Assembly: GCA_002633005.1 (NCBI GenBank)
Contig: NMRA01000188.1
Coordinates: 544,464 to 595,203 of the forward strand
Length of the DNA: 50,740 bases
Source of the DNA: Phoronis australis
Taxonomy: Eukaryota > Animalia > Phoronida
Reading direction: 5' to 3'
A program made the translations under genes and the position numbers. Of the stretch, positions 5,162 to 44,300 are shown one piece after another. Each line of letters begins with the position of its first letter. Position 1 is the stretch's first letter. The notes below the pieces were generated by a model, which worked only from the letters and a program-made list of their open reading frames with translations, made no database searches and was not told the origin of the DNA.

Positions 5162-5927
5162 TCAGGTGAAATTCACCGGCGTTGAAGCCTCACATCCAGG
5201 ACAGTTCACGCAAACTTCACAATTGCAACGCTTACATGAATGCGAAGATGCCTCGAACATATAGTCGAACAGGCATGCACCGCGACGTTGTACGCCATAC
5301 AAACACAAGATGAACAAGGTACAGTCTGTCGGGTCAGGCCATGGGTCGCCCATGACACATATGCCTTGAGTAGTACTGGGCGTGGTCAGATTAAGAGGGG
5401 TAGTTAATGCCGGTGTAATGGTAGTGATGTCATCCTCTGTTGTTGATTTTTCGGTTGAGGATGTCGACCCATAGGTGGTCATTTTTGGTTTTGTTGTAGT
5501 TGGTAATACCGTGGAAGTTGTTGGTGACGTACTTGTAATTGTCACAGTGCTTTTAATAGTCGTGGATGGCGATGACACCTTCGTTGTAGGCCTACTAAAT
5601 GGAGAAGTGACACTTTCGGTTGACTGAACCTTAGTCTGTGTTATCTCCCTTGTTGTATGATTGACAGGCAGCGAAGACGACGACAGTCCATATGTGATGA
5701 CCTCAGTACTTGCCTTTGACGTTTTAAGACGTGTAACAGGAAGTGCATTGGGCACGACCATCTCTATACCAATACTGGCCACATCCACATTCAAGTCCTT
5801 GAACGCAGTACCATTGAGCACCCCGTCCATAAGCACACTGAGAGTGGTTTCCGTGCTCACTGGAATAATGCTGTTTAAAATCCTCTTCATAAAAGTTAGA
5901 ACAAACTTCACTATAAGGCTACCGTCC
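5162..5927 (-). CDS. Alternative terminal exon D (recent paralog of C): SEA C-half (DGSLIVKFVLTF), short mucin stalk, 1 CBM14-like domain; predicted isoform about 613 aa
   Basis: 249-aa ORF extended to acceptor cttgatgttgcag|G GAC GGT AGC CTT, phase 2. Intact frame to stop. Confidence 0.85.
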
Positions 5928-13112: not shown

Positions 13113-13872
13113 TCAGGTGAAATTCCCCCGCTTTGAAGCCTCGCAACCCGGACAGTTCCCGCAAACTTCACAGTTGCAACGCTTACATGAATGCGAAGAT
13201 GCCTCGAACATGAAGTTGGGCCGGCATGCACCGTGACGTTGTTTAACGCCATCCCAACACATGATGAACAAGGTACAGTCTGTCGGATCAGGCCATGGGT
13301 GGCTTATGACACATCTACCTTGAGTAGTAGTGGGCGTGGTCAGATTAAGAGGGGTAGTTAATGCCGGTGTAATGGTAGTGATGTCATCCTCTGTTGTTGA
13401 TTTTTCGGTTGAGGTTGTCGACCCATAGGTGGTCATTTTTGGTTTTGTTGTAGTTGGTAATACCGTGGAAGTTGTTGGTGACGTACTTGTAATTGTCACA
13501 GTGCTTTTAATAGTCGTGGATGGCGATGACACCTTCGTTGTAGGCCTACTAAATAGAGAAGTGACACTTTCGGTTGACTGAACCTTAGTCTGTGTTATCT
13601 CCCTTGTTGTATGATTGACAGGCAGCGAAGATGACGACAGTCCATATGTGGTGACGTCGGTACTTGCCGTTGACGTTTTAACAGGAAGTGCATTGGGCAC
13701 GACCATCTCTATACCAATACTGGCCACATCGACATTCAAGTCCTTGAACGCAGTACCATTGAGCACCCCGGCCATAAGCACACTGAGAGTGGTTTCCGTG
13801 CTCACTGGCATAATTCTGTTCAAATTCCTCTTCATAAAAGTTAGAACAAACTTCACTATAAGGCTACCTTCC
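13113..13872 (-). CDS. Alternative terminal exon C: SEA C-half (EGSLIVKFVLTF), short mucin stalk, 1 CBM14-like domain; predicted isoform about 611 aa
   Basis: 247-aa ORF extended to acceptor cttgatgtttcag|G GAA GGT AGC CTT, phase 2. Intact frame to stop. Confidence 0.85.
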
Positions 13873-21132: not shown

Positions 21133-22681
21133 CGCCTAGTAGAACATATAAATTGTGGAAAAGAAATCTGTTGAGCTCTCGTCAACCCTTACAATAAAGT
21201 TTGAAACAAGTCTGGTACTCCTTGCGAAGTTTACAAAGTGGGTAAATATGACTTGAGCTTTGGGCAAGGAATGCCCGGATGGCAGAAAGATTGCCCACTT
21301 CCAACTCATATTCCACAATGCGACGCGACAACGAAGTGTTTTAGCTGACTAGTGCTTTAATTTTCAGAAGAACTAATAATTGCGTGATGGCAATTTTGCA
21401 TGAAATGACCAAAACAGGGTTTAGTATACTTTCATAACCCAAAGTCTTAAAGGTATACTAAACCCTACTTTGTTTGTTTTCGTTGAAACTGTAACCACTA
21501 ACTGGAAGCTCGCCAACACTGCGGTAACTTCAGCATGGGACAGAACAATGACTCTATCACCGGAAGACTGTATTTTCGATAACGGGGTCTATCATGCAGT
21601 GCACTTTTCTTGCTCCGCGCAAGTGGAGGGCAGAATTCGGGGTGTCACTATTGAGCTACTACCCAGATTATCAAAACTGCAACAGCTAACACGAATATCT
21701 ATCAAGATGCTTCATTCTCGAAACAATGACTGAATTATGATGTTTTGAAACTAAAGCAAATGTATACACAAACATTTACTCGCTGATAAAAACGCCTATT
21801 TTTATCATTAAACATTGTCTGTTGACGTATGGACAATCTAAAACAGCAGTTTCAAAGCGTTCACATAGGCAATATCCGAAAAACAAATAAATGAACGCAA
21901 GATATGTTAAAACTATGCGCAATGCAATATTCACAAATTCATGTTCTGTAAAATGAATCACCTCACAGTCCATTTTGTGCATCAACGCACCTACAATCCA
22001 TAAACATGTATCTACTTGACAAGAGTAACTACTCATATGAAACCCAGAATAAAAGAACGTTCCGAAACAGATCTACATAAACAAAAACTACAAAATTCGC
22101 CGGAATACATCACAAAAACGTATTATTGAGGATACAAAACCCGGTTTTGGACAGTTAACAGATATTAACAATGCCTTTACCATCCAGCTCTCTAAAGCAA
22201 AACAACGCTCTGCAATCCTCGTCAACCCTCAAAGTTTCAGAAACAAACTGAAAACACCTTGCAGAGTCTGCTAAACCGGAAAGCTAGACCTCCGCTTTTG
22301 GCGACAGATGTAAGGAAAAATTATCGACCATTAATAACAACTCATTCAGTGAGACAGTAAGCGTTTTCGGGAGAATCTGGTTTTCATCAACCAAGTTACA
22401 CGCTGATGGTTCATTAGCAGGATACAGAACGAGTACTGTTTGAAACCATCAAACCATGGTTTAGTATCCTTTTGACTAGACACTAACAAAACGCGAAAAA
22501 TTTACAAACCCATATAATAATAATCTGCAGCAATATTTCATTCTCTAAACAATGCATAGCTAACCACTCATTAGCAGTTGAACATGTAAATTCCTACCCT
22601 CTGACAAGATACAGTACTGCTACCAAACAAACGTATTATAGAAAATGCTAATCATGCCCCTTTACTAAGGGCGTGTCAGAT

Positions 22682-22687
22682 TTTATT
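22682..22687 (-). promoter_or_regulatory. Candidate polyadenylation signal AATAAA for exon B
   Basis: tttatt on the plus strand about 53 nt past the exon B stop. The hexamer is common in AT-rich DNA. Confidence 0.4.
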
Positions 22688-22700
22688 GTGGAATAGAGAC

Positions 22701-22754
22701 GAGTACAGCACCTCACGTGCACTCCAAGAGTACAGCACCTCACGTGCACTCCCA
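22701..22754. repeat. 27-bp tandem duplication spanning the exon B stop codon
   Basis: gagtacagcacctcacgtgcactcc[a/c]a occurs twice. Confidence 0.95.
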
Positions 22755-24891
22755 GCAGACTTGAGGATCACACTTAATGCAAGACTCTTTGCTTGCAGAG
22801 TACATTTTAAGAACGCGTCCCGAGCCGCCATTGTTGCAGTCCCAGACAATGGCTCCACTACTGAGACCGCAAATGAGACTATACGAGCAATTGTACGGAT
22901 GTGGCTCAGTGTGGACATGGGACTGATTTGCGCATTGTAGAGGTTGGTTACCTTCTAGAGAAGAAGTGGAGGCAACGGCTGTAATGGCCAACTCAGTGGT
23001 TTGGGCGGTGACCTCTTGTGAAAACGAGTCTGGCTGCAAAGTACTCTGAACATTTTCACTCGCAAAAGTACTTGAAGCGACAGGGGCTTCAGTCAATACC
23101 AAATTGGGCGACGTCCAGGTTGGCACGATAGTTGAATCTATCGACAATGTCGGACGTATCACCGCATCACTAACTTCTGAGGGACGCCTCGATTCAGAAT
23201 TTGAGCGCGCGTTTTCACTCGAACATTTCCGGCAGGAAGAGGTGCACGACACACATTTGCTCGAAACAGGGTCGAACATTAGATGGACAGCACAAATGGC
23301 AACAAACCGCCTCCATCTGTTATTTACGCATCTGAAGTAGAAAAATTTGGTACAGTCACCTTTATGTTCCTCATTTTTAACACTACCGAGGAAGCAAAAA
23401 TCAGAAGGTGTTGTTAACGTGTTTGCTACAGTACCGTGGACAGTGTTTGTAGGAAGAGGCGTACTACTGACAGTAACCCACGGTGGCGAGGTCGAACTAA
23501 CAGATGTCGATTGACTTGCAAGTGGAAGAGTGAGCTCTGGGGAAGTAGATTTGATATGATTGGTCGAAGTTTGAACAGCGGCAGTACTCGGGACCAGTGT
23601 ACTGGTAAAAAGTGGAGTTGTGGACTTTCGATAGGTGGACATCTTATAGTTGGACATTGCAGTGGTTTCGATAGTCGGCGACACAGTCGACTTCGACACT
23701 GGAGTAGAGATAATTTCACTAGTAAATCTTCGGTTGGTTGAAAGTGTTATTGGCAAGCTAGACTTTGTTTTTGTAGTTGATGTAGAAAATATTGCACTTG
23801 TAAATGTTTGCCTGCTTGAAAGTGTTATCGGGAGGTTGGTGGTTGATGACGTTGTCTGGGCACGTGATATCACAGTGGTGGATTTTTCCGGCGTCCCTGT
23901 GGATACTTCCAGGGTCGTCAAGAAATGTGTGGGAGTGGCTTTAGAAAATTCTTTTGTGGGTGTTACACCAGGTGGAGCTGATGTATGCAGGTGTAAATCA
24001 GTGCTTCGGACATTTGATGGTGTTATAGTTGTAAATATAGCAGTTGTTACAACAGGAGATGTAAATGGTTTGTCAGACGTTGTGCTGAGGGTTGTTGTAA
24101 CTGTATTACTAGAAGTCGTGCTGGGTGGAGTTGGATTTGTGAATACTCCGGTTGGTGTCCGTGTCAGCTCGTATGGCTGAGTTGTGTGTTCAGTCGTCAC
24201 TAGTTCCGTAGTGGCAGGACTCTGATAAGACGTTGAAAACGCTTGATATGTGTGTTCGGTTGTCTGCTGTGGTAATGAAGAAACAGGTCTTGTAATAGAC
24301 GATCTTGTGGACGTTAAGCGAGAAATTAACGAACTAAGAGGGGCGTTTTCTGTTTTCGATGTAGGTGTTTGTGTTAAAGGTGGGTTCCTAGATGACGGTG
24401 ACTGATCAGTAATACTACGCCAAGTTGGAGGCGATGCAGATGACGGTGACTGATCAGTAATACTACGCGAAGTTGGAGGCGATGCAGATGACGTTGACTG
24501 ATCAGTAATACTACGCGAAGTTGGAGGCGATGCAGATGACGGTGACTGATCAGTAATACTACGCGAAGTTGGAGGCGATGCAGATGACGGTGACTGATCA
24601 GTAATACTACGCCAAGTTGGAGGCGATACAGATAATAATGGCACAGAGGAGGAAATCACGGAAAATGGACTCGTTGCTGTCTCAACCGTCGTCGACGATG
24701 GAGCAGTCTTCGTTAAAAGGACAGATCTTTGTTTCGGTTCTAATATCAAACTGCTTTCGTCAGCGAAGAGATTGTCTTTTGCCAGTTCTTGACGTATTCC
24801 GAGTCGGAACACTTGAATTACAGCACCCTGCTGTGCACTGTCTTTTAAGATGTTGAACTTCAACTCGAAGACCACAATGACGCTTCCATTA
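22740..24891 (-). CDS. Alternative terminal exon B: SEA C-half (NGSVIVVFELKF), long mucin stalk with tandem repeat, 2 CBM14-like domains; predicted isoform about 1075 aa
   Basis: 722-aa ORF. Acceptor tttttgttgtttag|T AAT GGA AGC GTC, phase 2. Very T/S/P-rich, with two Cys clusters. Confidence 0.88.
24390..24627. repeat. Coding minisatellite, 5 x 48 bp (SPPT[S/W]RSITDQSPSSA)
   Basis: Unit agatgacggtgactgatcagtaatactacgc[c/g]aagttggaggcgatgc, near-perfect copies. Confidence 0.95.
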
Positions 24892-24942
24892 CTAAACAAC
24901 AAAAACAACTATATATCGGCAACTTGTCTACAATTCAATGAC

Positions 24943-24971
24943 CGGGTGTTGTCAGTAAGCCGACGGTGGCA
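24943..24971 (-). promoter_or_regulatory. Putative selector sequence for exon B
   Basis: Plus strand cgggtgttgtcagtaagccgacggtggca, starting about 51 nt from the acceptor AG. Conserved with the exon A element although the surrounding intron is not alignable by eye. Confidence 0.68.
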
Positions 24972-27900
24972 ACAAAACTGCCTTTGGCGACAATGTGGGT
25001 GTCATTCATTAGAACCTCAATAGGTGGAGCCAATATTACAACTAGATTAAAATAATAGAGGTTAGTATATAGCGAAGTGGACTAGCGCTGTGGCAATGCA
25101 GGCAGGGATGTCTTTGTTAACAAGCAAGTGGGTTTGAAAAGACAAGTCACTCCTGACTTTCAAGAAGTACGAGATGACCTCAACTCGGAGTGGTTGTTAC
25201 CAAAAATGGAAATTTTTAAGGCTTCGCAGGGATTATTTTAGGAGCAAGATTTGCGTCAATGGCACAACATGATTAATTAATTCAGGCAATGCGATTGCTT
25301 AACTTGTGCCGATGGAAGCATTGAAATTGTGAGGTAACTGTGCCAACGAGACAAAGTAGGTCAGCTGTAGAGTTAGTTTGGTTGAATTGAAATGCAAACA
25401 ATCGTTCAGACCAATCGCAAATTGCCACCTTCCCCCAAAAAATGAATCGAAAAAGAGCAGAAAATACCTGGGCGACTCATAGCTATTTCAAGCTGGCAAA
25501 TAGATTTGAGGCCCTCTGGGTCAATTGACCAATATAGCCACGTTTTTTTCTAAAATAATCCCTGCTTCGATATTAATAATAAAAGTAGGGCAACATTAAT
25601 AAACGAAATTTTTATTAACAATAAACGGCTTTTACATCGTGAACCTACAGCAATAACATCAATAATGAGTTTCTTCATGAGAAACAATCCGCTAACAGTC
25701 CCATTCAGAAAACATTCTAATAAACTTGTCTGCACACACACAGAATGCAGCTAACTTTACTTACACTTAAAGGAGTAACCGCTTTAGAAATTAAGAAAAG
25801 TGTCTATCTGATAAAACAGTGGAAGACGGTAAAGGAAGAAATTAGACAGTCATGTTTTGTGAGAAATCCACCGAGTGCAAAAGACTGACACTGATCTACA
25901 AAGTTCCACACACACAGAGGTAAAACGCTGACATTATTTTGAGGAAATAACCCCAAAAACAAGCGGTTAGGGAATATTTGCCTATAGTAAGGATGAATAT
26001 TACATGGCAAGGCGAGTATGGGACTTTTAAAGTTTCATAACCCGACATGGGTACCAACGAAAGGCAAAATTTGATAATGTGTTTCACTCATTACCGCTAT
26101 TATGGTGGAAAATTTCGAATGTTCACAAGAAAACAGAAATTTGCCATGGTTCGTCTACCTGTTGTATTTCTCGACTCGAAATTGCCTCGTTGTTACCATT
26201 GACGCTCACGCCCCTCCTCAAAAGTATAAGTTTTTGTTATTTTCAATACGAAATAACAACGCGTGGAATTATGTTTGGACTAGGATTACGTTTCATTCAT
26301 ATCATTTATTGTTAAGTTCAAACTCACCGAAGCTTCACTGGATGTTCTCAAATAATTATTTCCAGATGTACAATCGTCTTTCACTGTACAATAATTTAAA
26401 AATCATAAAACTAGCCAAAAATGCAGAACGTCTTTAAAGCAAAAAGTGACACGGATTACAATCCATGAAACCCCACAGCCGAAATTGCCTACAAAGCAAA
26501 TCAACTACAGAAAGGAGTGTCTCAGAAATTCTATCACCAATAGGCATAGCAATTTAGATATTAACAGGATTTCTGTGAATTTAATACAAGAAAGCAAACA
26601 AATCCAACATTTTTGAAATGCCCATTTCCATACAGGGGGCACATTATTTTGCCGTTGGGATCGTTAGTCACGCGAGTCATTAAGGTTGCTTTGTTCCCGT
26701 TAATTTGTCGTTATGGGCTGGGTTTCTCGTATTACTAACGACTTGTAAATATTTTTTTTCTTTAAGATGCATTGGCATGCTCCTAACTATGCTAATGTAC
26801 AGCAGGAACTAAACGACAATGCTATTTTAACACAATCTACGCTAAACAAAATGCAGTTTTATTCATTGTCAACTTGTAAATGTAAAAACAAACAAATTTC
26901 TGCAAACAGGTGACCTTTGCACTAACTATGACGTACTTCGCGGGCTCATGCAGTGTTATTCCCCAGCACCACGTCACGATACTTACTTCACACGGTTCAG
27001 TATTTGCGACGGATCATTTTGCCACAAACTAGTTCTTAAAAACATTTGGCAATCCGCTACTTCATATTCACATTGTCGCTATATGTTGTATGATGTGTTT
27101 CTAATTTGGCCAAGCAATTTGAGAGATAAGGAATTAGCCTGCAAGACCTAATTTACGGTTGAAACCGAGTGGTTTACTCGCGTGTGCCCCCCATCGGTTG
27201 CAAAATGAGACATGCACGATAATTTTGTCCAAAAAGGTACTTAATTGGTATTTCATTGTTCAACGATGTGTTCTAACGATAATCTTTTAAGCCATCAAAA
27301 TAATGAGTGCACTAGAGAAACGCAACGTCAGCTAAGTGACATTCGTGCCCCACGATGCATTAGGGTTTCCCTTTTCATTGCCGGGAGGAAGGTAAGCGGG
27401 TGCAAGTATCTCGTACAAACAGATGGATATGGAAACTATAACGAAATCCTCGTGAGAAAATATTGACTAAATTTATGGACTTTTTATGTTTATAAACAAT
27501 ATGACTAATCGAAGGGTATTACAAGAGGTGCAGTGCATGAGTGCATATCGCATGTGCCGCTCAGATTCGCGAGTTAATCACTGCCAGATTCACAACCAAA
27601 GGGCGCACTTGACCAGAAAGTCTGCAAAGTATATGTACCAATTTTTGTGTGTCTCATAATCAGGAATTTTAGGGGGTTCAAAAGGCAATGAAAGCGACGT
27701 GATTTTTTTCTTTGATTGTGCCGACTTCTAAAAGGGTGGGTATTCCTGTTATCAACGGCAAAATAGTAAAGCTTAACAAACAACTATGAGCATGTTGGTA
27801 GCCGCGTACGAGTTTCAATACTTTTTTGACGCCAAGAGGGAAGCGCGCCCGTAAAATTAGAATAGTAACAATAAAATCGCGTCCCTACCGCAACACGTGC

Positions 27901-30900
27901 TCAAATTTGAAAGGTCGCTGCATACACAGTGCAGAAATTTTTGCCCATGTGTTTTCACTTTTATTTCGAAAATTTGCGTTGGCACATTGCTTACGTAGTT
28001 ATCACATGCAGTGACTCCAAGAAAATAACATGCACCTCAAAAACGCGTCAAAAAATGTACTATCGACTTAAAGTAATGCTAAGATTTCGATTCAGCTGTA
28101 GATATACCAGAAAGGGGCATAAACTCATGCTTCACCGAACTCGGATTTCGTTCAGACCGGTAACTCCGTATAAACTTCGCAAAAGCCATCGGCCGATGGA
28201 GCTGAAAGCACGAAGTTTCAACCGTAAATTAATCTTCAAAAGGACAAAATCGCAACAGTTGTGGCCAAGGTTTCGAACGTTATTGTTAATTAGTCACACC
28301 AGCACTAGACAACTATAATAACATATCGACATGCAAGCTGTGAAAAACTAACGATAGATATTCTCAGTCCGTAGCAAATAAACACGGGAAGATGGCAACC
28401 AGAACAAATCACATTCCTAGTAAACCTAGCTCCCGAAAATAATTGTGTAAGTCCCACTATTAGCTCATAAAACACGTCTCGTAATGTGTCTTACCGCGAT
28501 AGTTTTTGAATAATGTTACCAACAAGAACATGGAAACCACGGATGAGTCAAGAAAACTCTTCTGGTTTTATTAGGTGTTACCAAAACCCTAAAATTGCCA
28601 ATTCGACAATGGCACACGTACTTGGGACTCAAGTTGAGTTGCAGACTCATTGGACAACAAATCAAAAATGGTATGAGCATGATAATGTTTTCAAACCCAA
28701 AACGACTGGGTTAAGAACTCAACATTAACAGCTGAACAACGGGGAAAACGCCCGTATAACAATAATTAATCTAATCCATATCTACAAGTAATAAATATTG
28801 ATACATAAATTGGCACAAATCTTATTTTCACACTTAGCTAATCACAACCCTTGATGTCTAAAAATTATGTCCTATACAATCACCTGGTAAGTCAAGGGTC
28901 ACAGGTCAAGGTGTACAGCTCAAACTGCTAAAAATTTGAAAATAAATAAGTTCAGATTACATCTTCCCAACAACTGGAGGGTAAAAGTTGTGGTCGTAGC
29001 TATATCTTACTAAATCATTTGTGAATATAAGATGTAAATTACAACTTATGTTCAGCATATATCCCAAAAAGTCGGAGAGTTTCCCATAATTAGCTTACAA
29101 ATTTAGGTCGGTCTTCCTTGTTCTGAGCTAAGCAGAGCTATCTATATGAATTAGTACTTCCTTTTCAAATGCATTGTGGGTCGGTTGTCCACTCCTAAAC
29201 ATCCAGTGACAACAGATTACTTGGTGAGGTGTAAACATTAGAGGGGAAACAACATTTGAATCCTAAGATTGAAAGCTTAGATGCACTAAGACCCACTCTT
29301 ATGTACAACAAAGCAACCATCATCAAAATAAACATTGAAAGGCAGTCTCAAAATGCATCAAACAAATGTGTGGATTAGCAAACTGTGAAAGATTCTGGAG
29401 ACAGGTGCCATTCAATCATGCAGGAGTTAAATCTCACCACCCAAATACAGTGACTACATGCCCATAAGTTATCTGTTATGTCACCAAATGTTCACCAACT
29501 GACAAATTTTCCACAATGCCTCTGAAAAAACGATAGCTGTACCCTACATGATATCTCACAAATTGAGTACAAGAATTCCTGTAGAAAGGATCAGTTGCAA
29601 AAATAATTCCTGTTTTTAAAAAATTGAAATCAGGTGTTTGGGGGTGGTAATCAAATGGTTACCATGGAGCTGCAGAACACCGATGGAGGAGAGGAACCAC
29701 TAACAAGAGCGAGGAACCTTTTAACTCTCCACAGAACTACAATTCTAATCAAGCACAAAGCACCCTTACCACCCCAACCAGGCATGGGCACATTAACCAC
29801 ACACAACAAAGCTTTTACATAGAAAATTGTATGCGAAATGGGTTGTTAGTGTGTGTTCCTGCTGTACACAGTAAGACTTCTGTGGACTGCCGGTTACCCC
29901 CATGAGCTAACTGTTTCTGCCCAGCCATTTTAAAGATGCCTGTTGATAAAATTTTACTTGTCTGCAATGTTTGCATGCGAGGCCACTTGTGTGACATACA
30001 TTTTTATCCTGGCAAAAATACGTAAAAATTAAGTTCCTGGAATAACCACAAGGTGGCCTTCACTATAACGTGCACAATCAATAAGTGGGAGTCGGGCACT
30101 TTACTATTTTTAGTTCAATTTTACCTTTCTGGTCTGAAACTCCTGCAGAATTGCCTTAACATAACTCCAATTTGCATTGAAACCAACTACTGGAATGACA
30201 GATAAGCTCTTACTATAGCCAGTGAAACATCACCTTTGTCCCACCACGGGGTCATGACTTACTAGTCAAAACATCACTGAGACCTTAATTTTAAGTAGCT
30301 GGACACCAGTTTGGCAAACGAGGAACCAAAAATTTGAATTACAACAATTTTTGCAGTGTTATACATTGAAATCCTTAAGCCACATATTCGTGTATTCACT
30401 AACAACAATCATGCAGCAGATACTTCCGGACCGATTAAATTTTTACATGATTATTGTTAAAGAATGGAACGACACTAGGCTTTGAGGATTTTTTTATACC
30501 TGGATCAAAGACTATGATTGCTTCCATGTAACCATTTAATGAAAAAAAATAATTTAATTCAGATGGTTAACCATACTTATTTATCAAACTCGGTCCACCA
30601 ACGTTAAGAACTCCCTGCAATCCCCCTGGGTTGTTGATGCCTTGGTTTTTGAGCCAAATATCAGCCTTATTCCCCAACGAAAAATATTTTCCATCCCATG
30701 ATTACAAAATTCCCCTCAAGGTTAGCTTCACTAATCCAAATAGTTTTGGCATTGCCGATAATGATTAGAGACCAGGGGAGAGGGAGTTTCTCCATCCAAA
30801 AATTGCTCTCCCACAAGGCACATGCACATTTCCTCTCAGGTGAGCGAGAGCCCTGTCCCAAATCAATAATTGTTTGATAGTCCATATCGATGTAAATCAA

Positions 30901-30982
30901 CAATTAGCACCATAACATCACTGGCACAGCTGACCCTCTCAACACCCTATCCTGCTTTTGTTGCACCCACATGAATATTATC

Positions 30983-32684
30983 TCAAGTGTGCGGACATTC
31001 ATCACATACCAAAGGGTTGCATTTAATGCAGCCATTTTTATCAAGACTAAACATTAGGTTTGGGGGTGCATCACTGCCATCATTACAGTCAAAAGGGGTT
31101 GCCTCTCCTAACGTACAGCTCAGGAAGTATGTACAGCTATGGGGATGAACTTCGAAATGAGTCCCTGTTCTGTTGTGGGAGCATCGAACAGAATCCAACT
31201 GCTCCGAGGACAGTGCAGTGGTCACAGTGCCATTGCCAAATGCACTTGTTGGCAACGCACGGTTGACCCGCTGTGTGGTAGGGCCTACTTCTTGTTCACC
31301 ATCTGTGCCTTGACTAGTCAATGGCACAGTAGCGGCTGCGGTTATTCCAGGACTGCTAGTCATAACTACAGGGCATTTGTCACACACACTGGAATTGCAC
31401 TGTACACAGTGCGATAAATGTTTATCAAACATTTCACCTTGCGGGCACGGCACAGTTTGAATAATCCAGTCATTACTCCATGGTTTTGGAAAACAAGTCC
31501 AAAAATTCGTACAGTCAGACTTACTCTCATGCTTATCGTCAGGATTGTTTTTGCAATAGTCATTTTTCGATGTTGTCAATTGCTCAGTAACTCTTGTTGT
31601 TGCTGGTGTTGTTGATGAGACATATTCCATTGAAGTTTCTGTCACCATTGTAGCATCAGCAGCAGTTGGTGTTGTGCTTCCAGCTAACTGTGTCGTGAAC
31701 ACCACATCATTGTCATCCTCATCACCACCACCATCAGGGTGAGGTCTACCCTGTGTTGTTGGCACACTGCAGTTGCTGCACACCGTAGGGTCACAGGTCA
31801 CGCAGCCTCCAACCTCGGAGCTGTACATCGACCCATACGGACATGGTATCTGGACGTACTCATAACTATTAGAACTGAGCAAACTTTTGAAGCAAGCATA
31901 AAACACCGAGCAATCACCAAAGTGTTGGAAGGTCTTGTTGTAATTCTCAGGAAGGTGACACTTGGATAGGGTTGTTTGTTCAGTCGCCTGCATTGTTACC
32001 ATAGAACCAGTCCCAACACTGGAGCTAGTAATGACTGAAGTTGGGTCACGGCTTGCACTAGAGTCAACATTAGTAGATGTTGTGCTAGACTCTTCTGTAC
32101 TTGTTTTGATATCAGCTGACGTGGTTAATACAGGGCTTGTAGTTGTTGTTATGGCAGTACTAGTCAATGAGTCCACAACAGTTGTGCCTTCAATATGTGA
32201 AGTGGTTTGTGCAGGTAATGTTAATGTTGAAGCTGATGTTGATGATGTTGAGTGCCTCGTGGTAGACAACGGAGTCGACTCTGTTGGCAATTCGTGATTG
32301 GTCGTTGTTCTCATATTTAATGATGCACGTAGCGTTGTTGCTACAGTTGTTGTTCTTGCTGTTGATCTCCCTGCAGTTTTCAATGATGGCAAAAGAGACG
32401 TAGCATGAGTTCTTATAGACATTGTTGGTTTTGGTGAAAGGGTGGTTTTCAAAGATGTCTTGGGCACTATTTTAGACTTGCCATAATCCTTACGTAACAT
32501 TGACCTTATGTTGATTAACTTCATACGCAGACTTGACATGTCAACAGACATGTTTTCCTTCCTCATTGCACTTTCTATTGACACATTAAATACTGTTTCA
32601 ACATCCGCGGCCTTGAAAGTTGTCCCAGACACTTTGCTGTCGTTAACAAAGGTCAACACAAAATCGATGTAGATGCTTCCGTTA
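30983..32684 (-). CDS. Alternative terminal exon A: SEA C-half (NGSIYIDFVLTF), mucin stalk, 3 CBM14-like domains; predicted isoform about 925 aa
   Basis: 581-aa ORF. Acceptor ctttttgtttag|T AAC GGA AGC completes the CG+T Arg codon from exon 4. Thr/Ser-rich tracts and three Cys clusters with peritrophin-A-like spacing; stop at 30983-30985. Confidence 0.88.
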
Positions 32685-32737
32685 CTAAACAAAAAGATTA
32701 AACAAGCTTCATGTTTGGCACCGTTCATATCAACGAA

Positions 32738-32772
32738 CGGGTGTTGTCAACAAGCCGACTGTCCTGCGCATG
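32738..32772 (-). promoter_or_regulatory. Putative selector sequence for exon A
   Basis: Plus strand cgggtgttgtcaacaagccgactgtcctgcgcatg, starting about 53 nt from the acceptor AG. About 30 possible base pairs with 34517-34552. Confidence 0.7.
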
Positions 32773-34516
32773 CGTCCCTGTGGAAACAGTTTTGGTTAAA
32801 ACGCAGGAAAATGCTGGAAACACAATGAACCAGAGACGTCCCTACATGAAATGACACTGAGAGAAAAACTGAAGACAGCGCAGCATTCACGGAAATAAGG
32901 TTACATCGACACAACAGAGAGAACTCTCTATGGAGTTACGTTGCCATGGTTCTCAGGACGAAAACAACGATGCAGGCATGCCACTTTATTCACGAAAAGT
33001 TGTACGTCACTTAACTGTGCAAAGGTGACAACAACATCGGTAATAACAGGATGAACAAAAGGTTTCATCTCAAGCGGTTAAGACATGGGTATAAAATGTT
33101 GTTTTGTGAAGTATTAGTAGTTAGCTTGTAACCATCCTAAGTACTAACTATGAGGTTATGTCGACGGGGCGAAATTTTCATCACAATCCAGTAAGGCTGC
33201 AAAGCATCATAGCATTGGAGTTATCCTCCGCCAGTGTCACAAGTTACTTAAAGCATTTCGCCCAGTTAAACTGGCTAAAAACCAACACTGTATTACACCT
33301 TTCATTCTCACGAAATCGATCCTGTTATGTTCCTAACTGTGATAGGATTCGAAATGAAACGCCTCTGCGCTTATTGGGGCTGGCTGACGCTAAATTTGTT
33401 GGCCAGCCCCAAGAGACTCTGAAGCGTTTTCTCGAGTCGATGGTTTCCATGTTTTTGTTGGTAACAGAGTCGAACCCTGCCACCTTAAGGAACATTCTGA
33501 GACCAACTTTATGAGAGTAAAGGGGGCCAATTCGATTTTCATTTATTAGCCAACTGAATAGGGCGAAATGCAGCCAAGTATTAGTGGGTAATCTATCATT
33601 TTTTATTAACTAGCAAACTGAGATGTTAGAGGGAAATTAGCACTGCTGGGATATGGCTGCCACAGCCACAATGCAATGGTATGTTATTAGAAATCATGTT
33701 TGGCTATCTTCAGATGAAGAAACCCAACTTATGTCAAGGCTGTGTGCGAGCCAACTTTCGAATTGTGTTACTTCTATCAACTTTTCAGTGCCAAAGCTGC
33801 CACTGAGCACATTTCCGACAACAAAAGATGTTACGTGTTAGGAAGCACATAGTTGGGCTACTCTAAAGATAGAACAGGGCTTGACATTAAAAGAGGCTGT
33901 AAAATTGGAAACAAAAAATATGCCCTAAATGACTTGTTGAGGAAAAGTTCATTATAACTGGAATAGGTGTAATCAGTAATACAGGGAGTTCAATGCTTCG
34001 ATGCAGACAAGTCAGATTGAAATTCAAAACCATGTAAAATTCTTTTTGAGTCACAACTGATCAAAAAAGTTTTACCAGTTAATGCAGAACCCCTTAATTT
34101 GTCCAACTATGTTCAGAAAAAAAAAACATGATCCAATCATGCAGTTTTATTAACTATTACCTCCGTTACTTAATTAGTTATTATTTCTTGTGTTTTCAAT
34201 GCAAGCTGTATGACTCTCTAGCTTAACACTGCCCAACAGGTGGCAGTGTGTTAACCTACAGCACAACACCATTAAAAACAAAAGACCGGGCATAAGGCTT
34301 CAAAGCCCAAATGATAATAGCAGACATCGCATGGTTTCACATGCTGCCTTTTCAACAAAAGGAACAACAGAACGTTGGATAAGCACATGCACTAATTGAA
34401 ACCAAAAAGTAAAATGAACAGAAATGTGGGCAGACATGGTCAACAAGAAACAAGGGCACATGCTCATTCCATTAGTGCTGCGTGCAGATGAGTGTGTTGA
34501 GGAAATAGAGATGTGA

Positions 34517-34552
34517 CATGCACACCAGACGGCTTGATGACAACCCCACCCG
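34517..34552 (-). promoter_or_regulatory. Putative intronic docking site for long-range RNA pairing
   Basis: Sense RNA CGGGUGGGGUUGUCAUCAAGCCGUCUGGUGUGCAUG, about 360 nt downstream of the exon 4 donor. It is the inverted complement of elements upstream of exons A and B. Confidence 0.7.
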
Positions 34553-34647
34553 CGAGCAAATACACACAATGAAAACACATTGTAAATTATACAAAAACAA
34601 AACATAAACAAGAATATTCCTTCACCTTCACATTAGCAAGGTTGCAT

Positions 34648-34672
34648 GGTTTGGTTTGGTTTGGTTTGGTTT
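34648..34672. repeat. (GGTTT)5 microsatellite
   Basis: ggtttggtttggtttggtttggttt read directly. Confidence 0.9.
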
Positions 34673-34914
34673 TCTAACTAGTAAGTGGTAAATGTTAAAT
34701 TTTACTGGCGGAGTGAATCTGATACACATTTACTGTGAAAGAAACACAAATAAAGCAATGCTCATGAACAAAGAACTTTATCCTCACTTCCAAAGTCAGC
34801 TGTTGCAGACTACATCTAGAGCAGACGAGAACACAGAGTTGTGCACACATCAGTTGATAATGAGGTCATTTTATAGCCACACAAGACCTAAACTATTCGC
34901 TGTGCAGTACTTAC

Positions 34915-34982
34915 CGGTAGGCAATCACCTGACACGTCTGAAACGAGTCTTTGAGGTCACTGTTGTTGTATACTGCCTGCAC
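34915..34982 (-). CDS. Shared exon 4 (68 nt, phase 0-2), SEA domain middle VQAVYNNSDLKDSFQTCQVIAY(R); last constant exon
   Basis: Not in the ORF track; read manually. Acceptor tgctgtttccatgcag|, donor TACCG|gtaagt. Continues the SEA consensus (Y-x-x-S-x-L-x-x-x-F...V-x-x-[FY]-R) up to the GS motif. Confidence 0.88.
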
Positions 34983-35284
34983 CTGCATGGAAACAGCAAA
35001 GTCTCAATTTGACAGTAAAACACGGATCACAAGCTGACAAAGCAGACTACAGCAGTGTAACTGACCCACTACAAAACTCGGTTTGATGGCATGCAAATAC
35101 ATTTCAACACTGAATACGATAATTCCTCACTTACTTTGGACAAAAATAATTCCAAAATCTTGTCTTTTTTATATTTTCAAACTAGGCTGATTACTTTGTT
35201 TGAAGAATTGAAACTTTACAAAATGCTGCTTTATGTCATCCTCATAGTAAAAACCAAGCTAACAACTGACTAGAATTTTCTTAC

Positions 35285-35929
35285 CTGGAAATTACGAAAA
35301 TAGGCCCATAGGGAAATATTTGGAAAATGACCTCTCAAAAATGTCAGATGAGATTGAATATATCCCCACTAGTTTTTCAAAAATGAGGGGCTTATTCATC
35401 GGACACTATACCAAAATTTTATGACGCAATTTTAAAGTAAATAATTGTCATTTCACCCAAGACTGTTTTCAAAGAACGTGAAAGAGAACTGCCCTTCTGT
35501 AAGTGTGGGTAGTCCTTAAATTAAAGGACTGTTTGTTTTTACTGATAAAGAAGCAATGCAAAAGGTTCATTTAACATAAGGAGCAAACATTTTTGTAAAG
35601 TTTTGAAAACAAACAACATTAGTTGTGAAGTTTTTTCAATAAATGCATCTTTTTAACGTATATAGTTGTAATTTTATTTGTCCGTACTTATTTCCCATTC
35701 AGCTGACATAGTGCATGAAAACTGCCCTTCATACTATGCCAATATAGTTACCAAAAAGTCACCCAATATCTTATTTGAATGTCTTGCCAAAATAAAACAA
35801 AATTTCACATCAAAACATATTACGGACGTGTTTTGGAACAACAGATTGAATTTTCGTATCATGCAAGCAGTTTCTGAAAAAACACCTATTTGCGTACTTT
35901 TGAGTGGGCCTATTTTCAGAAATTCCCAG
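35285..35929. mobile_element. Non-autonomous DNA transposon/MITE in intron 3
   Basis: TIRs ctggaaattacgaaaataggccca ... tgggcctattttcagaaattcccag; no coding capacity. Confidence 0.75.
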
Positions 35930-36162
35930 TAAACTTCACTTTTGTTAATGAATTTTGAAAAAATGTAATTTCAGCAATTCACCCTATTGTGTGCTACCTA
36001 CTATGGTTAAGATCATAGATTCCACTCAGTAGGGATGAAGACCCAATCAAAGCAGATATCTGACTTCACTCTCAAGAGGGCAATCAAGTGTGAACAAGGT
36101 TATTCCTACCACAACTGATTTCAATTTCAGCTCTGCCCGACACTGTTCAACAACCAACTTAC

Positions 36163-36269
36163 CTTACTGCAAAATAAAACTGAGGTGCTTTTGTACTTTT
36201 GCGATGTTTTGTCCTCATACTCTGGACCGTATGTCATATTACGTATGCGCATGCTTCCATTAAATGTAA
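36163..36269 (-). CDS. Shared exon 3 (107 nt, phase 1-0), start of SEA domain VTFNGSMRIRNMTYGPEYEDKTSQKYKSTSVLFCSK
   Basis: Acceptor cttctttcttttgtag|, donor AGTAAG|gtaagt. The peptide fits the SEA N-terminal strand/helix pattern (F-x-x-S-h-x-I-x-N...Y...S-x-x-Y). Confidence 0.88.
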
Positions 36270-36978
36270 CTACAAAAGAAAGAAGACCAACTTTTGGAGA
36301 GGTGAATTGGGTCACAATCAAGTCATCACAAACACTAGCACATATTTAAGGATATTTCCAACCTTATTCACAAAAATTGGCCATTTTTACAAAATTTCAC
36401 TTGTGTCTAGCAAAATACCTTATCTTCATTCTCGGGGAACTTCAAATACGAAATATATACTGCGTAGCGAGAAAAAAAAGATTTAGCAGAACCACCTTGG
36501 AACCGCACATCCGCTTGGATATTTGTTTAGCACTTATCCAAGGTCAAAGGTTAAAGGGCTTTCAAGTAAATAGAGTCTCCCGCCAGGTACAGAACAGCTT
36601 CGGTATACCTTCAGTCCTTTCATTCGCAAATTCGCCATAACATTGAACCAACGAGGTATGGTTATGATAGAATGGTCCCGGGGAAAACGAATACAAAACG
36701 TAGTTTTTATCCTAAGGGAGTTGTGGGTCTACATGCATACGACTGTTGACGTTGAAAACAAATTCTACGAGTTGCCTCAGGATTGAGTCTGGTCATGAAC
36801 ACAGAAAGTTGTGAAAAGAGATAAATCCTCCCCATTATTCCTTAATTCAATTATTAAGTTAACATTTTGATGTTTCGATTTCATGTTAACGACTTACTTT
36901 AACCACCAATTCAATTTTTGTTGTCCATTTCTTACTTGGTTTGGTATCAGTCTTCCAGCACGTGACGTGTACAGGCTA

Positions 36979-37821: not shown

Positions 37822-37935
37822 CAGAGACGAAAAATTGCTGACAGTTCAGAGTATGAATCATTGCACATCAAATGTCCAAAAAGAAACTGTAAGGAGTGGA
37901 GAGAATAACAACTGACCAAAGGGGGCACAACTCAC

Positions 37936-37992
37936 CCACATCAACTTCGTCAGGTTTGCCTGTCGTCTGGATACTGCTTACTGCTTGATTAT
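37936..37992 (-). CDS. Shared exon 2 (57 nt, phase 1-1), juxtamembrane linker DNQAVSSIQTTGKPDEVDV
   Basis: Acceptor attctttattggtag|, donor GATGTGG|gtgagt. Open and phase-compatible with both neighbours. Symmetric, so it could be skipped without frameshift. Confidence 0.7.
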
Positions 37993-40290: not shown

Positions 40291-40463
40291 GGAGTAAGCC
40301 GTGCCCATGACACAGTTCAATCACGGAACATTTGGAGTTTGTTTCATACCTTGAATTACCCCTAACATTGTGAAAATCAAATCAAGAACTACATGCAGGT
40401 CCCAACATAATAGCCAAACTAGTTGTGAGTCCAGTACATTCTGTGTGGAATCACGAATCTCAC

Positions 40464-41307
40464 CTGGTTTAACAAAGCCTAAAATAATAGCCACAATTGC
40501 AGCTGTCAGACATAAGGTGATAAGCATGAATAGTAAGGCTAACACTTTCCATCCAGTCACTGAAAGGCAAGGCTTCTTTTTTGGCGCATCATCTGATACC
40601 GTCCGGCGGTCGTCAGGACCAATAATGTCTAACTGTATGTCTTCCTGCGACGACGTACCACCGCCGTCTGAAAAATTTGGCCATGCCGTGCCATGCTGTG
40701 TGTACGACCTTGGCGTCCGTAATTGTCCTTGAAATTGATACTGCTTAGGCTTGCCTCTAGGTGGCTCTGCCGATGGCAAGAGCAGGTTACTGTTTGTTTC
40801 GTTTGTAGTCCTGTGAAAATGAGATGTACGAGCACTGACATATTGCACTGTAATCTGAGCTGGCACATTATTTCTTCTGTCATCATTTATGGCACTATTG
40901 GAGTCCGTCGAGCTAGACTCTTCTGACACGGGCTCATGAATGTCCGCAGAGTACGCCCTGTTATCATAGCACTGCTGTGACGAGCTCGGCAGACTATGTG
41001 TAGTGTTTGTCAACGATTCTTTCCGCCGTGAGTCACTTGGCAGAGACAGCTGAGATCCTGCAGGTACATTGAAGTATGAGCTGTGTTCAGGCCTCCGACG
41101 TGGGAAAAGAGAGTCTGAATAGAATGAGGGTGTCTTGTGGCTCGTTAACGAGTGCACCCTGGCAACCTCGTTTTTAGAGGGCGTACAGGAGCCCACCTTG
41201 AAGACATCGCGCACATCACGATGTCGACTACTGTAACTGCCCTGGCTGTGTCTAGTCCGGTGTGGAACAAGAACCTCATCTTTCACTGCTTGTTCTGTCG
41301 ACCACAT
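40464..41307 (-). CDS. Shared exon 1 (coding part) of type II membrane SEA/mucin/chitin-binding protein: Ser-rich cytoplasmic N-terminus plus single TM helix
   Basis: Within the 341-aa ORF. Acceptor tttgttccag| gives exon start 41337; first in-frame ATG at 41307 (MWSTEQ...). Basic KKKPC precedes hydrophobic WKVLALLFMLITLCLTAAIVAIILGFV (positive-inside, type II). Donor AAACCAG|gtgaga at 40464/40463, phase 1. The true start could lie in an unidentified upstream exon. Confidence 0.85.
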
Positions 41308-44300
41308 AGGCTTCTTGCAGTAGTATGGAAAAGCTCCCTGGAACAAATAGCAGACAATGTCAGACTTTCATGTAGCAATGTGGCAACTGATGACGTGGGA
41401 CTAGATACTAGTGACTTCTAGAGGGCAAGGAGGCAATCACACAGTACACTTGTAAAAAGGCCTTTTCACAAAACCAAACATGTTCCTCTATGCCAACCGC
41501 TGCAAAGAAGTAGTACCTCCTGCTACAGCCAGGTGGCAATAAGATTCACCAGTCCCATGTCATCAACCCTTGTTGCTTTCTGTAAGACTCAACGAATTCA
41601 CTTAACAGCAGAACATGATTACTTTTTAAAGTAGGTTTTGTTTCTATCTAATTTTCCAACTCACAGCACATTGAAATCCCATGATGTTTCTGTAACATTT
41701 TCAAAAAATAATAACATAACAGGCTCAACGATTCTGCTAATGTTTTATCTGTTTTAAACATATTTTCTAACTTTAGCAAAGAATACATTTTTAGAAAATT
41801 GTATACATGGTTATTAGCTTTGTTTTAGTCATACAGTGTTACAATTCTTGCAAACATCAAGATTGAGAAAATTCTAATCTATTGCAAGCATTATCTGTAC
41901 TGTCATAAACAACTTTTAGTGAATTTTCATTGTTTGCAGTAAAGTGCAGGTTAACTGTAATGGCATTTTTTCGCTATATTTCCACCATTTTGTTCACTGC
42001 TCTGCAGTATATAACTTCAACATGCATCATACCCCAACTAGTTTATGAAAAGAAATTAATTTAAGCCCCTAACAATTGTAGTAAATTAATTAAGATTTCC
42101 TTGCTGTGTTGCTGAAAGACATTGCTATCCTTCTATTCAGTTGTACACTGTAGCCAGACTATGAAATATCCCACAATAGAATGCAGTTGCGCCTGGTTTA
42201 ACTTACAAGTCATGTGTAAGGGCGTGTGCCTTCATTTCAGACCTAACATGACTGGGATGAACATAAAACGATGATTGATGACAATTCAAATATTCTCCTC
42301 TTATTTAATAAATCAAGCGTAGGGCAACCTGACATCATCAAATGTGCCTAAGTTATCTCTATCAAACACATTCAATAATTGTTGACCCAGTATATCTGCA
42401 TAAAGTAAACACCCTAGATATTCTCTGTGGGAACAAAGCAGGCACACTAGAGCACAATAGCCTGCATCAAGTGTCTTGCCTTAACAAAGCCCAGTGATCT
42501 CAACACTAAATGTACGTGAACGCCAGTTGCAAGCCATGAAATATCGAGTTCAGATTGGATTAATAAGAGCTCCACCCTGTTTATTAAACATACTAGGCAG
42601 TAGCCAGGCCAGTGAGTTGGGAAATCAATTCTTGATTAAATGTGAGAACAGTTGATGACTCAAGTTACAGAAGCTCTCCAAAACTGGCAGATGTATTTAG
42701 ATAGGGATTTATAAACAAATTCAAATATTATTTGAGAAAAAATAAAATAATTTAATTTTAAATCAATTTTGCTATTTTTGTTATTTAGTAATTGATGTAA
42801 ACATGCAAATAGTCATCACTGCTAAATCATAATCAAATAAACAGAAACATAAGTATGATCTTTAAATCACATAATTTTGTTTGAATTATCACAAATTTAT
42901 GTCGAGACCAAATGTTGTCATTACATGCAAATATTTCATACTTTCAATAATTGAAAACTATTTTCCTCAAAATTTTGGCTCATGGCCAAAAACAGGACTC
43001 CTAGGCAGAAAATAAATTGTAAATTTACTTCAATTCATACTTGAAAATTCTTTAACAAGAAACAAGAAACAACTATGTCAAAAGGAACAGGACTGCTTGT
43101 ACATCGAAGCTCACAGCACGAGAAGATATTTACCGTACTCTTCTGGGTTACTGCCTGGTGCGTGGTTGTATTAGGGAATACAAAAACCATGCAGTGGGTG
43201 TTTAGCCCAAACAATGACCCTTAAAAATAACAATTTTTTCAAAGCTCAAGGTGGTGCTAACTTAACCATCAATCGGGTAACCACCCAAGGAGCTACTTCA
43301 CATGAAGACGGATAGAATGAAAGGGACTGATGCTTAATCAAATGTGAGTTGCGTACTTTTTCGGAGCATGAATTCTGATGAAATGGGCATTTCCAAACAC
43401 ATGGACATTTTAAGGAAGTCTCCATCAGATAACTTGGGTGGTAATTATGAAGTCAGGTGGTACGCCATCCGATCATCGGGTATAGTAATAATTTTTGCCA
43501 CAACTTAAATACCAGCAAAATGCAAGAAAAGACAAACAAGCTGAGAATCTTTTTGTTGATAAAATAAAGAGGTCAAAGCATGGAGGGAATCTTCAACACA
43601 CCAAACTGTGTTTCCAGATGGCTTCTAATAAAGTTTGTTTTAAAAACTCAAAGGCAGAAAACAGGTTTTCAAGCCCTTACCCAATCAGTCCAGTCTCCTC
43701 TGATAAAGATGTAAACATCAATGATGTATGGGCGGGAATGTTGGTCTTGTAAAAAAACAAACAAGCAGGTTACTCCTCTGTTGTGGCATGTCTCAGCATT
43801 TGATAAGGCAACTTGTTGGGTCTGATCTACAGAGTCAATCCAATAGACCAGATGAAACTTTGTCAGTTTTGGACAACTAAGTCTGAAATGGTTGTTAGAC
43901 CAAAAAAGCTCTACCCCGACTCGTATGGGAACACTCACTCACTGGACTCTCGATCTTTTTTTAAAGCTGCACAAAGGCACTTAAACAAGGGTTAGCAAGG
44001 TTTGACACCCCATCACTTGTCACGTGAGTGTTAGCTCATCTGGGGTGGCTTTTCTTTTTTGAAAGAGTGACCTACAAAAAAAACAGTGTACCACCTTCTT
44101 CTTATCTAATTGTTTTTATGAGAAATTCCAGAGACAACATTTCATATTTTTACCATAATGTGTCCAGAAATTGAAATTTTATGGTGCATAAGTATACTGG
44201 CCACCTGTACCTTTTCCAGTGATTGTTTTTTTATTAAATGCAAGTCTAAGATAGTGGAAAAGATTGACAATCAGTTAGGAACTAATCCTCCTTATGCATC

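Follow-up and report, generated by a model that had tools for sequence, protein, structure and literature searches.

A gene on the minus strand of the window (the whole 50.7-kb stretch of DNA that was analysed) encodes an animal membrane mucin with alternative last exons. The choice among these exons is probably influenced by competing RNA pairing of the PGRP-LC type, which would itself probably derive from an old stem of which one arm was duplicated. A candidate docking site after the last constant donor is complementary to two similar candidate selectors, one upstream of last exon A and one upstream of last exon B. The docking/selector mechanism is already known; from its sequence the present locus is a strong candidate for a further case.

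The exons and associated features are as follows; joints are from RNA-seq, and runs are given out of four.

40464..41337, minus strand: constant exon, an open reading frame with the cytoplasmic region and one hydrophobic, likely transmembrane, stretch; joint 40464->37992 in 4/4 runs.
37936..37992, minus strand: constant exon of 57 nt; joints on both sides in 4/4 runs.
36163..36269, minus strand: constant exon with the first SEA part; Pfam SEA match and joints.
34915..34982, minus strand: last constant exon, with the middle SEA part and a phase-2 donor; Pfam SEA match, joint to A in 4/4 runs.
30983..32684, minus strand: last exon A, coding part, 567 aa; joint 34915->32684, CBM_14 match, in frame.
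25590..30982, minus strand: 3' UTR inferred for isoform A, length about 5.4 kb; unbroken same-strand depth, implied end at 25594-25667.
25611..25616, minus strand: AATAAA, likely poly(A) signal of isoform A; fits the drop in depth.
22740..24891, minus strand: last exon B, coding part, 717 aa; frame fits the constant donor, same-strand reads and a contig.
13113..13872, minus strand: candidate last exon C, 253 aa, without a selector; open reading frame, in frame, alignable with A and B.
5162..5927, minus strand: candidate last exon D, 255 aa, without a selector; in frame, recent copy of C.

An additional exon probably lies 5' of 40464..41337, outside the stretch used for RNA-seq mapping; X1 contig 8 carries 154 letters past 41338. 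Exon 36163..36269 matches positions 3-30 of Pfam SEA (E 1.9e-05, 25.2 bits, cut-off 26.4), and exon 34915..34982 matches positions 37-57 (PF01390, E 0.1) as a single piece below the cut-off. None of the four C-terminal SEA parts in the last exons matches the PF01390 profile, and a profile of these four parts retrieved no SEA structure from the solved structures.

The acceptors lie at 32684 (A), 24891 (B), 13872 (candidate C) and 5927 (candidate D). The N-termini of the four last exons align, and all are open in frame with the phase-2 constant donor. Each begins two codons before the Gly-Ser at the predicted SEA cleavage position, with an invariant G2-S3 followed by hydrophobic residues. Exon A encodes the C-terminal SEA part, S/T-rich stalks and three Cys-rich chitin-binding-like domains; its match to CBM_14 (PF01607; E 5.4e-08, 33.3 bits) is above the curated cut-off of 22.1. 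Exon B encodes the C-terminal SEA part, a long S/T stalk with a 48-nt repeat and two Cys-rich domains. Pieces of B (E 2.6e-04, 21.5 bits) and of C (E 0.005, 17.4 bits) match CBM_14 under that cut-off, and D has no match to this family. D and C are 92% identical in DNA across 1081 nt; with N joins at 11075 and 17599, their placing as tandem copies is provisional. The changes between C and D crowd the Cys-rich part (25 in 70 codons, vs 15 in 182). Positive selection is not claimed, as the replacement:silent ratio of 18:7 is not clearly above neutral.

Homologue searches returned little. No orthologue of the transmembrane exon was found among 3,018 candidates in longer proteins, and none of the exon A protein among 7,986 candidates. 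Against 1.84 billion representatives exon A gave one weak match (E 1.3e-05), to an insect peritrophin-repeat protein, which was set aside as a generic domain match. The Atlas search gave nothing usable for C and, for A, only CBM_14 clusters below 0.9. Protein and metagenome-contig searches found no related genome or locus for conservation or covariation. A retroelement ORF in the window had two unnamed matches.

The elements that would pair are the following.

32730..32776, minus strand: candidate selector A, whose core precedes acceptor A by 53 nt; 33 predicted pairs.
24935..24975, minus strand: candidate selector B, whose core precedes acceptor B by 51 nt; 27 predicted pairs.
34517..34552, minus strand: candidate docking site, an inverted complement, 362-397 nt downstream of the last constant donor.

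The first-pass annotation had described an element of about 33 nt shared at a like distance from acceptors A and B, and this is borne out. Positions 24935-24967 (B) and 32730-32762 (A) are identical at 28 of 33 bases, and the offsets, measured from the core to the last intron base, are 51 and 53 nt. When the introns before A and B are aligned locally, the score is 41, which none of 1000 dinucleotide shuffles reaches (the shuffle test was run at 150, 300 and 1000 nt). The annotation had called these introns otherwise unalignable; this is largely so but slightly overstated, since a weak likeness continues from the selector to the AG (29 of 49 columns; 5/500 shuffles as good) and through the first 45 exon bases (25/45; 0/500 shuffles as good). 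Exon bases 46-180 are at chance level (268/500 shuffles as good). Identity peaks at the 33-mer (85%), with gapped flanks at 52-59%. That the selectors are so alike when the A and B proteins are 33% identical over 100 aa and the DNA of exon bases 46-180 is at chance points to selection on the element.

Upstream of candidates C and D no selector was found by intron alignment, duplex ranking or 40-mer scan. The 17-nt docking core, with three mismatches or fewer allowed, matches exactly three places in the 50.7 kb (0.11 expected; 0/100 shuffles with three). A 20-letter selector pattern finds the same three places (0.02 expected); both counts are post hoc, as the two patterns had been derived from the elements themselves. 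A single exact match to the selector pattern in metagenome contigs was attributed to chance, being in GC-rich, ORF-dense DNA with unrelated flanks. Rfam gave no family match.

The inverted complement is where the annotation had put it, but at 362 nt from the donor it is not "just downstream". The predicted duplex of docking site and selector A has 33 pairs, four of them G-U (-48.5 kcal/mol), and that with selector B has 27 pairs, three of them G-U (-40.6 kcal/mol); the register is slightly off the version with a 3-nt bulge proposed earlier. The computed duplexes share the same docking bases, and the looped-out lengths are about 1.7 kb and 9.5 kb, both as first described.

Selector regions were also taken at identical fixed offsets from each acceptor and used to rank 20,184 windows. 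The docking window ranks first both for A (-53.2, runner-up -39.3) and for B (-40.6, runner-up -38.7). In a scan of intron 3 the top 40-mer is identical for the two selectors, at -47.9 with A and -38.9 with B; the mean over 40 random regions was -31.0 and the minimum -38.5, and C and D gave -29.4 and -26.8. Intron 3 was searched for a second docking site serving C or D, and none was found. When the docking site is run against the pre-mRNA, a search in which both elements had been expected on top, selector A is first of 5,058 windows, and selector B is sixth of 5,056 with the annotation's 51-nt docking window or joint second of 5,058 with a 36-nt window.

Other measures separate the two selectors further. 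Watson-Crick complementarity to intron 3 alone is equalled by 1/500 shuffles for A and 38/500 for B. For the letters that only B has, pairing is no better than with random ones (838/3000); for those private to A the figure is 134/3000. The net pairing gain once local folding is paid is modest: -15.7 for A, -12.9 for B, -11.0 for C and -10.2 for one constitutive acceptor, on a null with mean -6.0, SD 3.4 and minimum -22.3 (n=396). A strong inverted repeat in the intron is also present at one of the three constitutive acceptors (0/200 shuffles). The A pairing is strong; the B pairing is weaker and is not significant in every test. Because they have a common ancestor, A and B are not independent evidence.

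RNA-seq mapping spanned the constant exons, A and B, with C and D lying outside the mapped stretch. The joint from the constant region to A (34915->32684) is present in 4/4 runs (the X1 contig, and 1, 7 and 3 reads), and the X1 contig is continuous from the constant exons into A. Summed reads over the constant joints are 15, 21 and 23, and over the A joint 11; the numbers are small, and the excess leaves room for other endings. Over B, same-strand reads are 1.2-4.0 deep, with a contig at 22927-24419. Depth in the bin of acceptor B is 1.26, 1.03, 0.86 and 13.7, where 1.04, 1.25, 0.93 and 12.6 would be expected if coverage stopped at the acceptor. B is thus transcribed, with a boundary fitting its acceptor. 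The joint from the constant exon to B (34915->24891) is absent among the 15 of 31 joints that were listed. Read-through from A is disfavoured as the source of the B reads, as depth falls, at the level of bins, between the likely end of A and acceptor B. A promoter of its own is disfavoured too, the B frame having no Met for about 400 codons past the acceptor. No alternative second donor was seen. Bins holding the three elements are at low RNA depth (0, 0 and 0.62 for the docking bin), and repeat bins are at 13-24 on both strands.

Several other readings of the elements were weighed. It is unlikely that the A stem functions alone, making intron 3 shorter through one long-range helix, with selector B a leftover of duplication kept by slow decay or old gene conversion and the exon choice made by poly(A) and splice-site competition. 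Such a history would suit the weaker showing of B as a partner in every test, the likeness that goes on beyond the selector as far as the acceptor and the start of the exon, and the missing B joint. It sits poorly with the sharp peak of identity at the 33-mer against its lower flanks and against coding DNA that is at chance beyond 45 nt, since an intron free of selection would not be expected to persist longer than coding DNA. The top partner of B in the window is, moreover, still the docking site.

Pairing could also be repressive, the duplex burying a branch-point-like YTRAY or sequestering the 3' end of the intron, so that the exon whose selector is paired would be left out in favour of the other. 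YTRAY is the branch-point consensus. A match lies within the predicted duplex in both selectors (at -63 and -61 in A), and that in selector B is the only one within 90 nt of its acceptor. AGs nevertheless intervene between the site and the acceptor (-24 in A; -38, -33 and -19 in B), which makes the selector YTRAY an unlikely branch site for either, and A has further matches at -46 and -14. Two of the three constitutive acceptors have no YTRAY match, so the consensus appears loose in the animal studied. In PGRP-LC, selector mutation reduced the downstream cassette. Together these points leave repression quite improbable. It is more doubtful still that the elements play no part in exon choice, being pieces of a dispersed repeat or copies of a protein-binding motif, one of the three inverted. 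Repeats and inverted repeats abound in the window, and one control acceptor also has a significant inverted repeat; but only three copies occur in 50.7 kb, of which two precede homologous acceptors by an equal offset and the third, inverted, follows the donor common to both. The low depth in the element bins, unlike that in repeat bins, is a weak argument in the same direction, as short diverged copies escape mapping.

Competing pairing of the PGRP-LC type remains the preferred explanation. The Drosophila PGRP-LC 3' variable region has a docking site, RE, and selectors CE1 and CE2 (Pan et al. 2018, PMC6191721), and compensatory mutations have proved this layout, in which there are two selectors and the distal cassette is unpaired (PMC6191721). 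The present gene likewise has a common cytoplasmic and transmembrane part, alternative extracellular 3' cassettes and one upstream docking element, with two similar selectors at the two proximal cassettes, unpaired candidate distal cassettes and a likely tie to 3' end formation. It differs in its unrelated protein (SEA, mucin, CBM14-like), its single-exon cassettes and its 9.5-kb reach. The PGRP-LC docking element is on the exon 2 boundary, where an alternative 5' splice site is masked by it; that of the present gene lies 362 nt into the intron. Docking/selector control of 3' cassettes has experimental support in Drosophila PGRP-LC, CG42235 and Pip, and is suggested to be uncommon at 3' ends (PMC6191721). 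That 3' tandem cassettes often need no pairing (PMC6191721) counts against our explanation.

The first-pass annotation had called the arrangement Dscam-like. Position and duplex rank support that layout well, with the 3'-variable PGRP-LC type a closer parallel than Dscam1. The docking site and selectors of the Dscam1 exon 6 cluster were reportedly described by Graveley in 2005. As far as the passages on Dscam1 in PMC6191721 and PMC6071210 go, that cluster has 48 internal exons held off by hrp36, and shares with the present gene a docking site in the intron after a constant exon, selectors before the alternatives and one pairing at a time. The present gene has two selectors, and its alternative exons are last exons, so that 3' end formation would make them exclusive and pairing would set their ratios. 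In the model that Ivanov and Pervouchine (2018, PMC6071210) put forward for mutually exclusive exons inside a gene, an exon and one intronic stem arm duplicate to give two similar selectors; the residual A/B similarity from selector through acceptor fits it, at terminal exons. C and D, without the arm, are either older than it or have lost it. The annotation's two-way choice between A and B is probably too narrow: it missed C and D, and with these lacking selectors a choice among three or four endings is likelier.

We infer a duplex that forms in vivo and activates rather than blocks, and a B exon joined to the constant exon. In the pre-mRNA the docking site would pair with selector A or selector B, likely one at a time. 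Looping out 1.7 or 9.5 kb would place the constant donor about 415 nt from the chosen acceptor. Where neither pairing formed, splicing would default to the distal, selector-less C or D, by analogy with the distal cassette of PGRP-LC. The AATAAA at 25611..25616 precedes selector B by about 640 nt in transcription order; the choice is likely coupled to 3' end formation, as selector B is made only after the likely poly(A) signal of A. The selectors themselves probably arose when duplication copied an ancestral last exon together with one arm of an existing stem.

Because the last exons begin at the predicted SEA cleavage position, the switch would swap the outer subunit in its entirety, with its mucin stalk and chitin-binding-like domains, while the membrane anchor stayed constant. 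Gly-Ser cleavage and type II topology are predicted. According to PMC9564314, MUC1 SEA is cleaved between Gly and Ser at GSVVV. As in the MUC1-type mucins so described, SEA is near the membrane anchor with Gly-Ser at the matching place, and a large S/T-rich outer part is predicted to stay attached without a covalent bond. Unlike MUC1 as described there, the order is reversed, with an N-terminal anchor and likely type II topology, and the outer part has chitin-binding-like domains exchanged by alternative last exons.

A fuller reading is offered tentatively. An RNA switch with a reach of 1.7 and 9.5 kb, racing a poly(A) signal, may swap the cleaved outer subunit among four versions. Two of these endings might be selected by pairing, and the other two might form a default pair, without selectors, that still undergoes duplication and divergence of its binding domain. 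The design could conceivably be an independent, convergent counterpart of PGRP-LC in an unrelated surface receptor, possibly outside the arthropods. The locus is small enough for a direct minigene test. If true, a clean two-selector case in an unrelated gene would mean that the design recurs, and, since the splice boundary falls on the SEA cleavage site as predicted, the whole outer subunit shown by the cell would be determined by RNA structure.

The gene lies on the minus strand. RNA joints connect its transmembrane exon (donor 40464) with exons at 37992-37936, 36269-36163 and 34982-34915, and then with exon A at 32684. Every joint of this chain has GT-AG ends and is present, in reads and contigs, in all four RNA runs; the raw runs were each sampled to about 18-19%. 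The two exons preceding A give piecewise matches within the first half of the Pfam SEA profile (positions 3-30, E 1.9e-05; positions 37-57, E 0.1). In contig 8 of the one assembled run (X1), 154 letters beyond 41338 (-) find no placement in 22000-41900, so a further exon probably exists upstream of 41338. Features of the locus are as follows.

37936-37992 (-), constant 57-nt exon, detected solely via RNA joints
34517-34552 (-), candidate docking site in intron 3, 362 nt past the donor
32730-32762 (-), candidate selector A, core 53 nt from acceptor A
30982-25590 (-), likely 3' UTR of isoform A, about 5.4 kb, from depth; five AATAAA, the last at 25611-25616
24935-24967 (-), candidate selector B, core 51 nt from acceptor B
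13113-13872 (-), candidate last exon C, in-frame ORF
5162-5927 (-), candidate last exon D, in-frame ORF

The first-pass annotation named only two endings, A and B. A six-frame scan adds C and D as in-frame candidates, giving four long downstream ORFs with similar starts (A, 567 aa; B, 717 aa; C, 253 aa; D, 255 aa). Each is preceded by an AG acceptor, and in all four the frame is open with the phase-2 donor at 34914. All have an invariant Gly-Ser two codons past the junction, followed by a stalk rich in serine and threonine (29-35% S+T) and then Cys-rich domains. For Pfam CBM_14, exon A scores above the cut-off, parts of B and C score under it, and exon D shows no match. None of the four C-terminal parts matches the SEA profile on its own. 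According to PMC9564314, the SEA domain of MUC1 is self-cleaving, with the cut between the Gly and Ser of GSVVV, and the halves remain joined non-covalently. If MUC1 is a guide, every last exon would supply an entire outer subunit; SEA cleavage and type II topology are predicted for this protein.

Exons C and D are 92% identical and lie within a larger duplicated block. Their differences are densest in the Cys-rich domain, with 25 changes over 70 codons versus 15 over 182 codons elsewhere. N joins are present at 11075 and 17599, and C and D are on opposite sides of one. They are more likely to be real copies than alleles, because at 8% they diverge far more than the window does from X1 contigs (0.6-0.7%; 9 in 1502, 20 in 2886). 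A 2.5 kb duplication, 97% identical (15064-17598 and 18404-20919), straddles an N join and possibly represents two haplotypes assembled in tandem; more copies of this repeat are at 7149-9337. A 184-aa ORF with two unnamed homologues (51-56% identity) is present twice, at 14437-14988 and 17708-18259 (-), and presumably resembles the 3' end of a LINE reverse transcriptase. A short run of TAT ends its first copy, some 280 nt upstream of acceptor C.

First mates over A and B map to the plus strand, which indicates minus-strand RNA if the library is of the usual stranded type. In the raw runs, 1, 7 and 3 reads cross the joint to A, 11 in total versus 23, 21 and 15 for the three constant joints, and an X1 contig runs unbroken from the constant exons into A. 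Same-strand depth continues unbroken from the stop of A to about 25,600, and the ratios between bins place its end at 25594-25667, adjoining the last AATAAA. A 26-nt inverted repeat (96%; 28514-28539 and 33441-33466) flanks exon A, with arms in its likely 3' UTR and intron 3, and is probably repeat-derived.

Raw-run reads cover exon B at a depth of 1.2-4.0, and a contig spans 22927-24419; none of the joints listed (15 of 31) leads to B. Depths in the bin at acceptor B (1.26, 1.03, 0.86 and 13.7) are near those expected if coverage ends at the acceptor (1.04, 1.25, 0.93 and 12.6), so the boundary fits a spliced exon and not read-through. The stalk of B contains a coding tandem repeat at 24390-24633 (48-nt unit, 5.1 copies, 97%), and a 27-nt tandem duplication (22701-22752) spans the stop codon of exon B. 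An AATAAA lies beyond the stop at 22682-22687; reads nevertheless extend to about 22043.

The earlier claim that the introns upstream of A and B share an element with one inverted complement is borne out. The selectors are identical at 28 of 33 positions (0/500 shuffles), local alignment of the two introns scores 41, a value reached by 0/1000 shuffles at each of three lengths, and 16-20-letter patterns match only at the docking site and the two selectors within the window. Relaxing the pattern to 14 letters with 2 mismatches adds a fourth match window-wide, a total no higher than chance predicts (4 found, 4.3 expected). Identity between A and B is 64/124 columns at 200-91 nt upstream (20/500 shuffles), 29/49 from selector to AG (5/500), 25/45 over exon bases 1-45 (0/500) and 67/143 over bases 46-180 (268/500), and the proteins are 33% identical in their first 100 residues. 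A and B are thus long-standing duplicates whose homology is faint near the acceptor and peaks sharply at the selector.

Both selectors point to the same docking site. Selector regions cut 45-95 nt before each acceptor were compared with 20,184 windows on both strands, omitting, as trivial self-complements, those on the plus strand that cover the four acceptor regions. The docking window heads the ranking for both selectors, at -53.2 kcal/mol for A (runner-up -39.3) and at -40.6 kcal/mol for B (runner-up -38.7). In the reverse test, the 36-nt docking site places A first and B tied second among 5,058 minus-strand windows. The 51-nt docking window of the first-pass annotation, expected to return both selectors as top hits, returns A first and B only sixth of 5,056 minus-strand windows. 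A and B also share one intron-3 40-mer as their best partner (-47.9 and -38.9, respectively); 40 random regions have a mean of -31.0 and a minimum of -38.5, and C and D reach -29.4 and -26.8. The duplexes occupy identical docking bases (33 pairs with A, 27 with B), and the lowest-energy dimers of both include the docking duplex.

Several results were counted against pairing. Watson-Crick complementarity to intron 3 is equalled by 1/500 shuffles for A and by 38/500 for B. Among three constitutive acceptors, one shows a stronger inverted repeat within its own intron (0/200 shuffles), because of a 24-nt inverted repeat (92%; 36345-36368 and 37703-37726) in repeat-rich surroundings before the first SEA exon. 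Net gains after local folding of both partners are modest: -15.7 (A), -12.9 (B), -11.0 (C) and -6.9 (D), with -3.5, -2.8 and -10.2 for the constitutive acceptors and a null of -6.0 (SD 3.4, minimum -22.3, n 396). The letters that differ between the selectors have a slight pairing preference in A (134/3000) and none in B (838/3000). Taken together, the tests make the pairing of selector A secure and that of selector B likely.

The system nearest to this locus is Drosophila PGRP-LC (PMC6191721). In that gene the proximal cassettes are preceded by two selectors that resemble each other and compete for a single docking element; mutations and rescues shift the choice, and the distal cassette is used with the docking element unpaired. 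CG42235 and Pip were validated too, and many 3' tandem genes are without such pairing (PMC6191721). Ivanov and Pervouchine (PMC6071210) account for this kind of docking/selector layout by duplication of one stem arm. Sequence searches brought up no orthologue of this gene and no related locus. Literature searches, with most subscription journals outside their scope, found nothing on this protein architecture or on docking/selector pairing with 'alternative last exons', and only unrelated work on docking/selector terms with non-arthropod group names. The locus has the PGRP-LC-type layout, and there is a reasonably good chance that it works as a switch of that type.

We infer every step of the mechanism. 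The docking site would be transcribed first; selector A would follow after 1.8 kb and selector B after 9.6 kb, the latter emerging about 640 nt past the likely poly(A) signal of A. Once either selector is paired, the donor and the acceptor next to that selector would be no more than about 415 nt apart, which would favour that exon, and the two pairings would be mutually incompatible. Unpaired transcripts escaping the earlier poly(A) sites would proceed to C or D. The data also allow a repressive reading, in which the duplex buries a match to YTRAY, which we take to be the branch-point consensus, inside each selector. This match lies within the duplex in both (at -63 in A and -61 in B), but AGs between it and the acceptor argue against a branch-site role. 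Pairing would tune the proportions of the endings, because the exons are terminal and exclusivity would be set by 3' end formation anyway.
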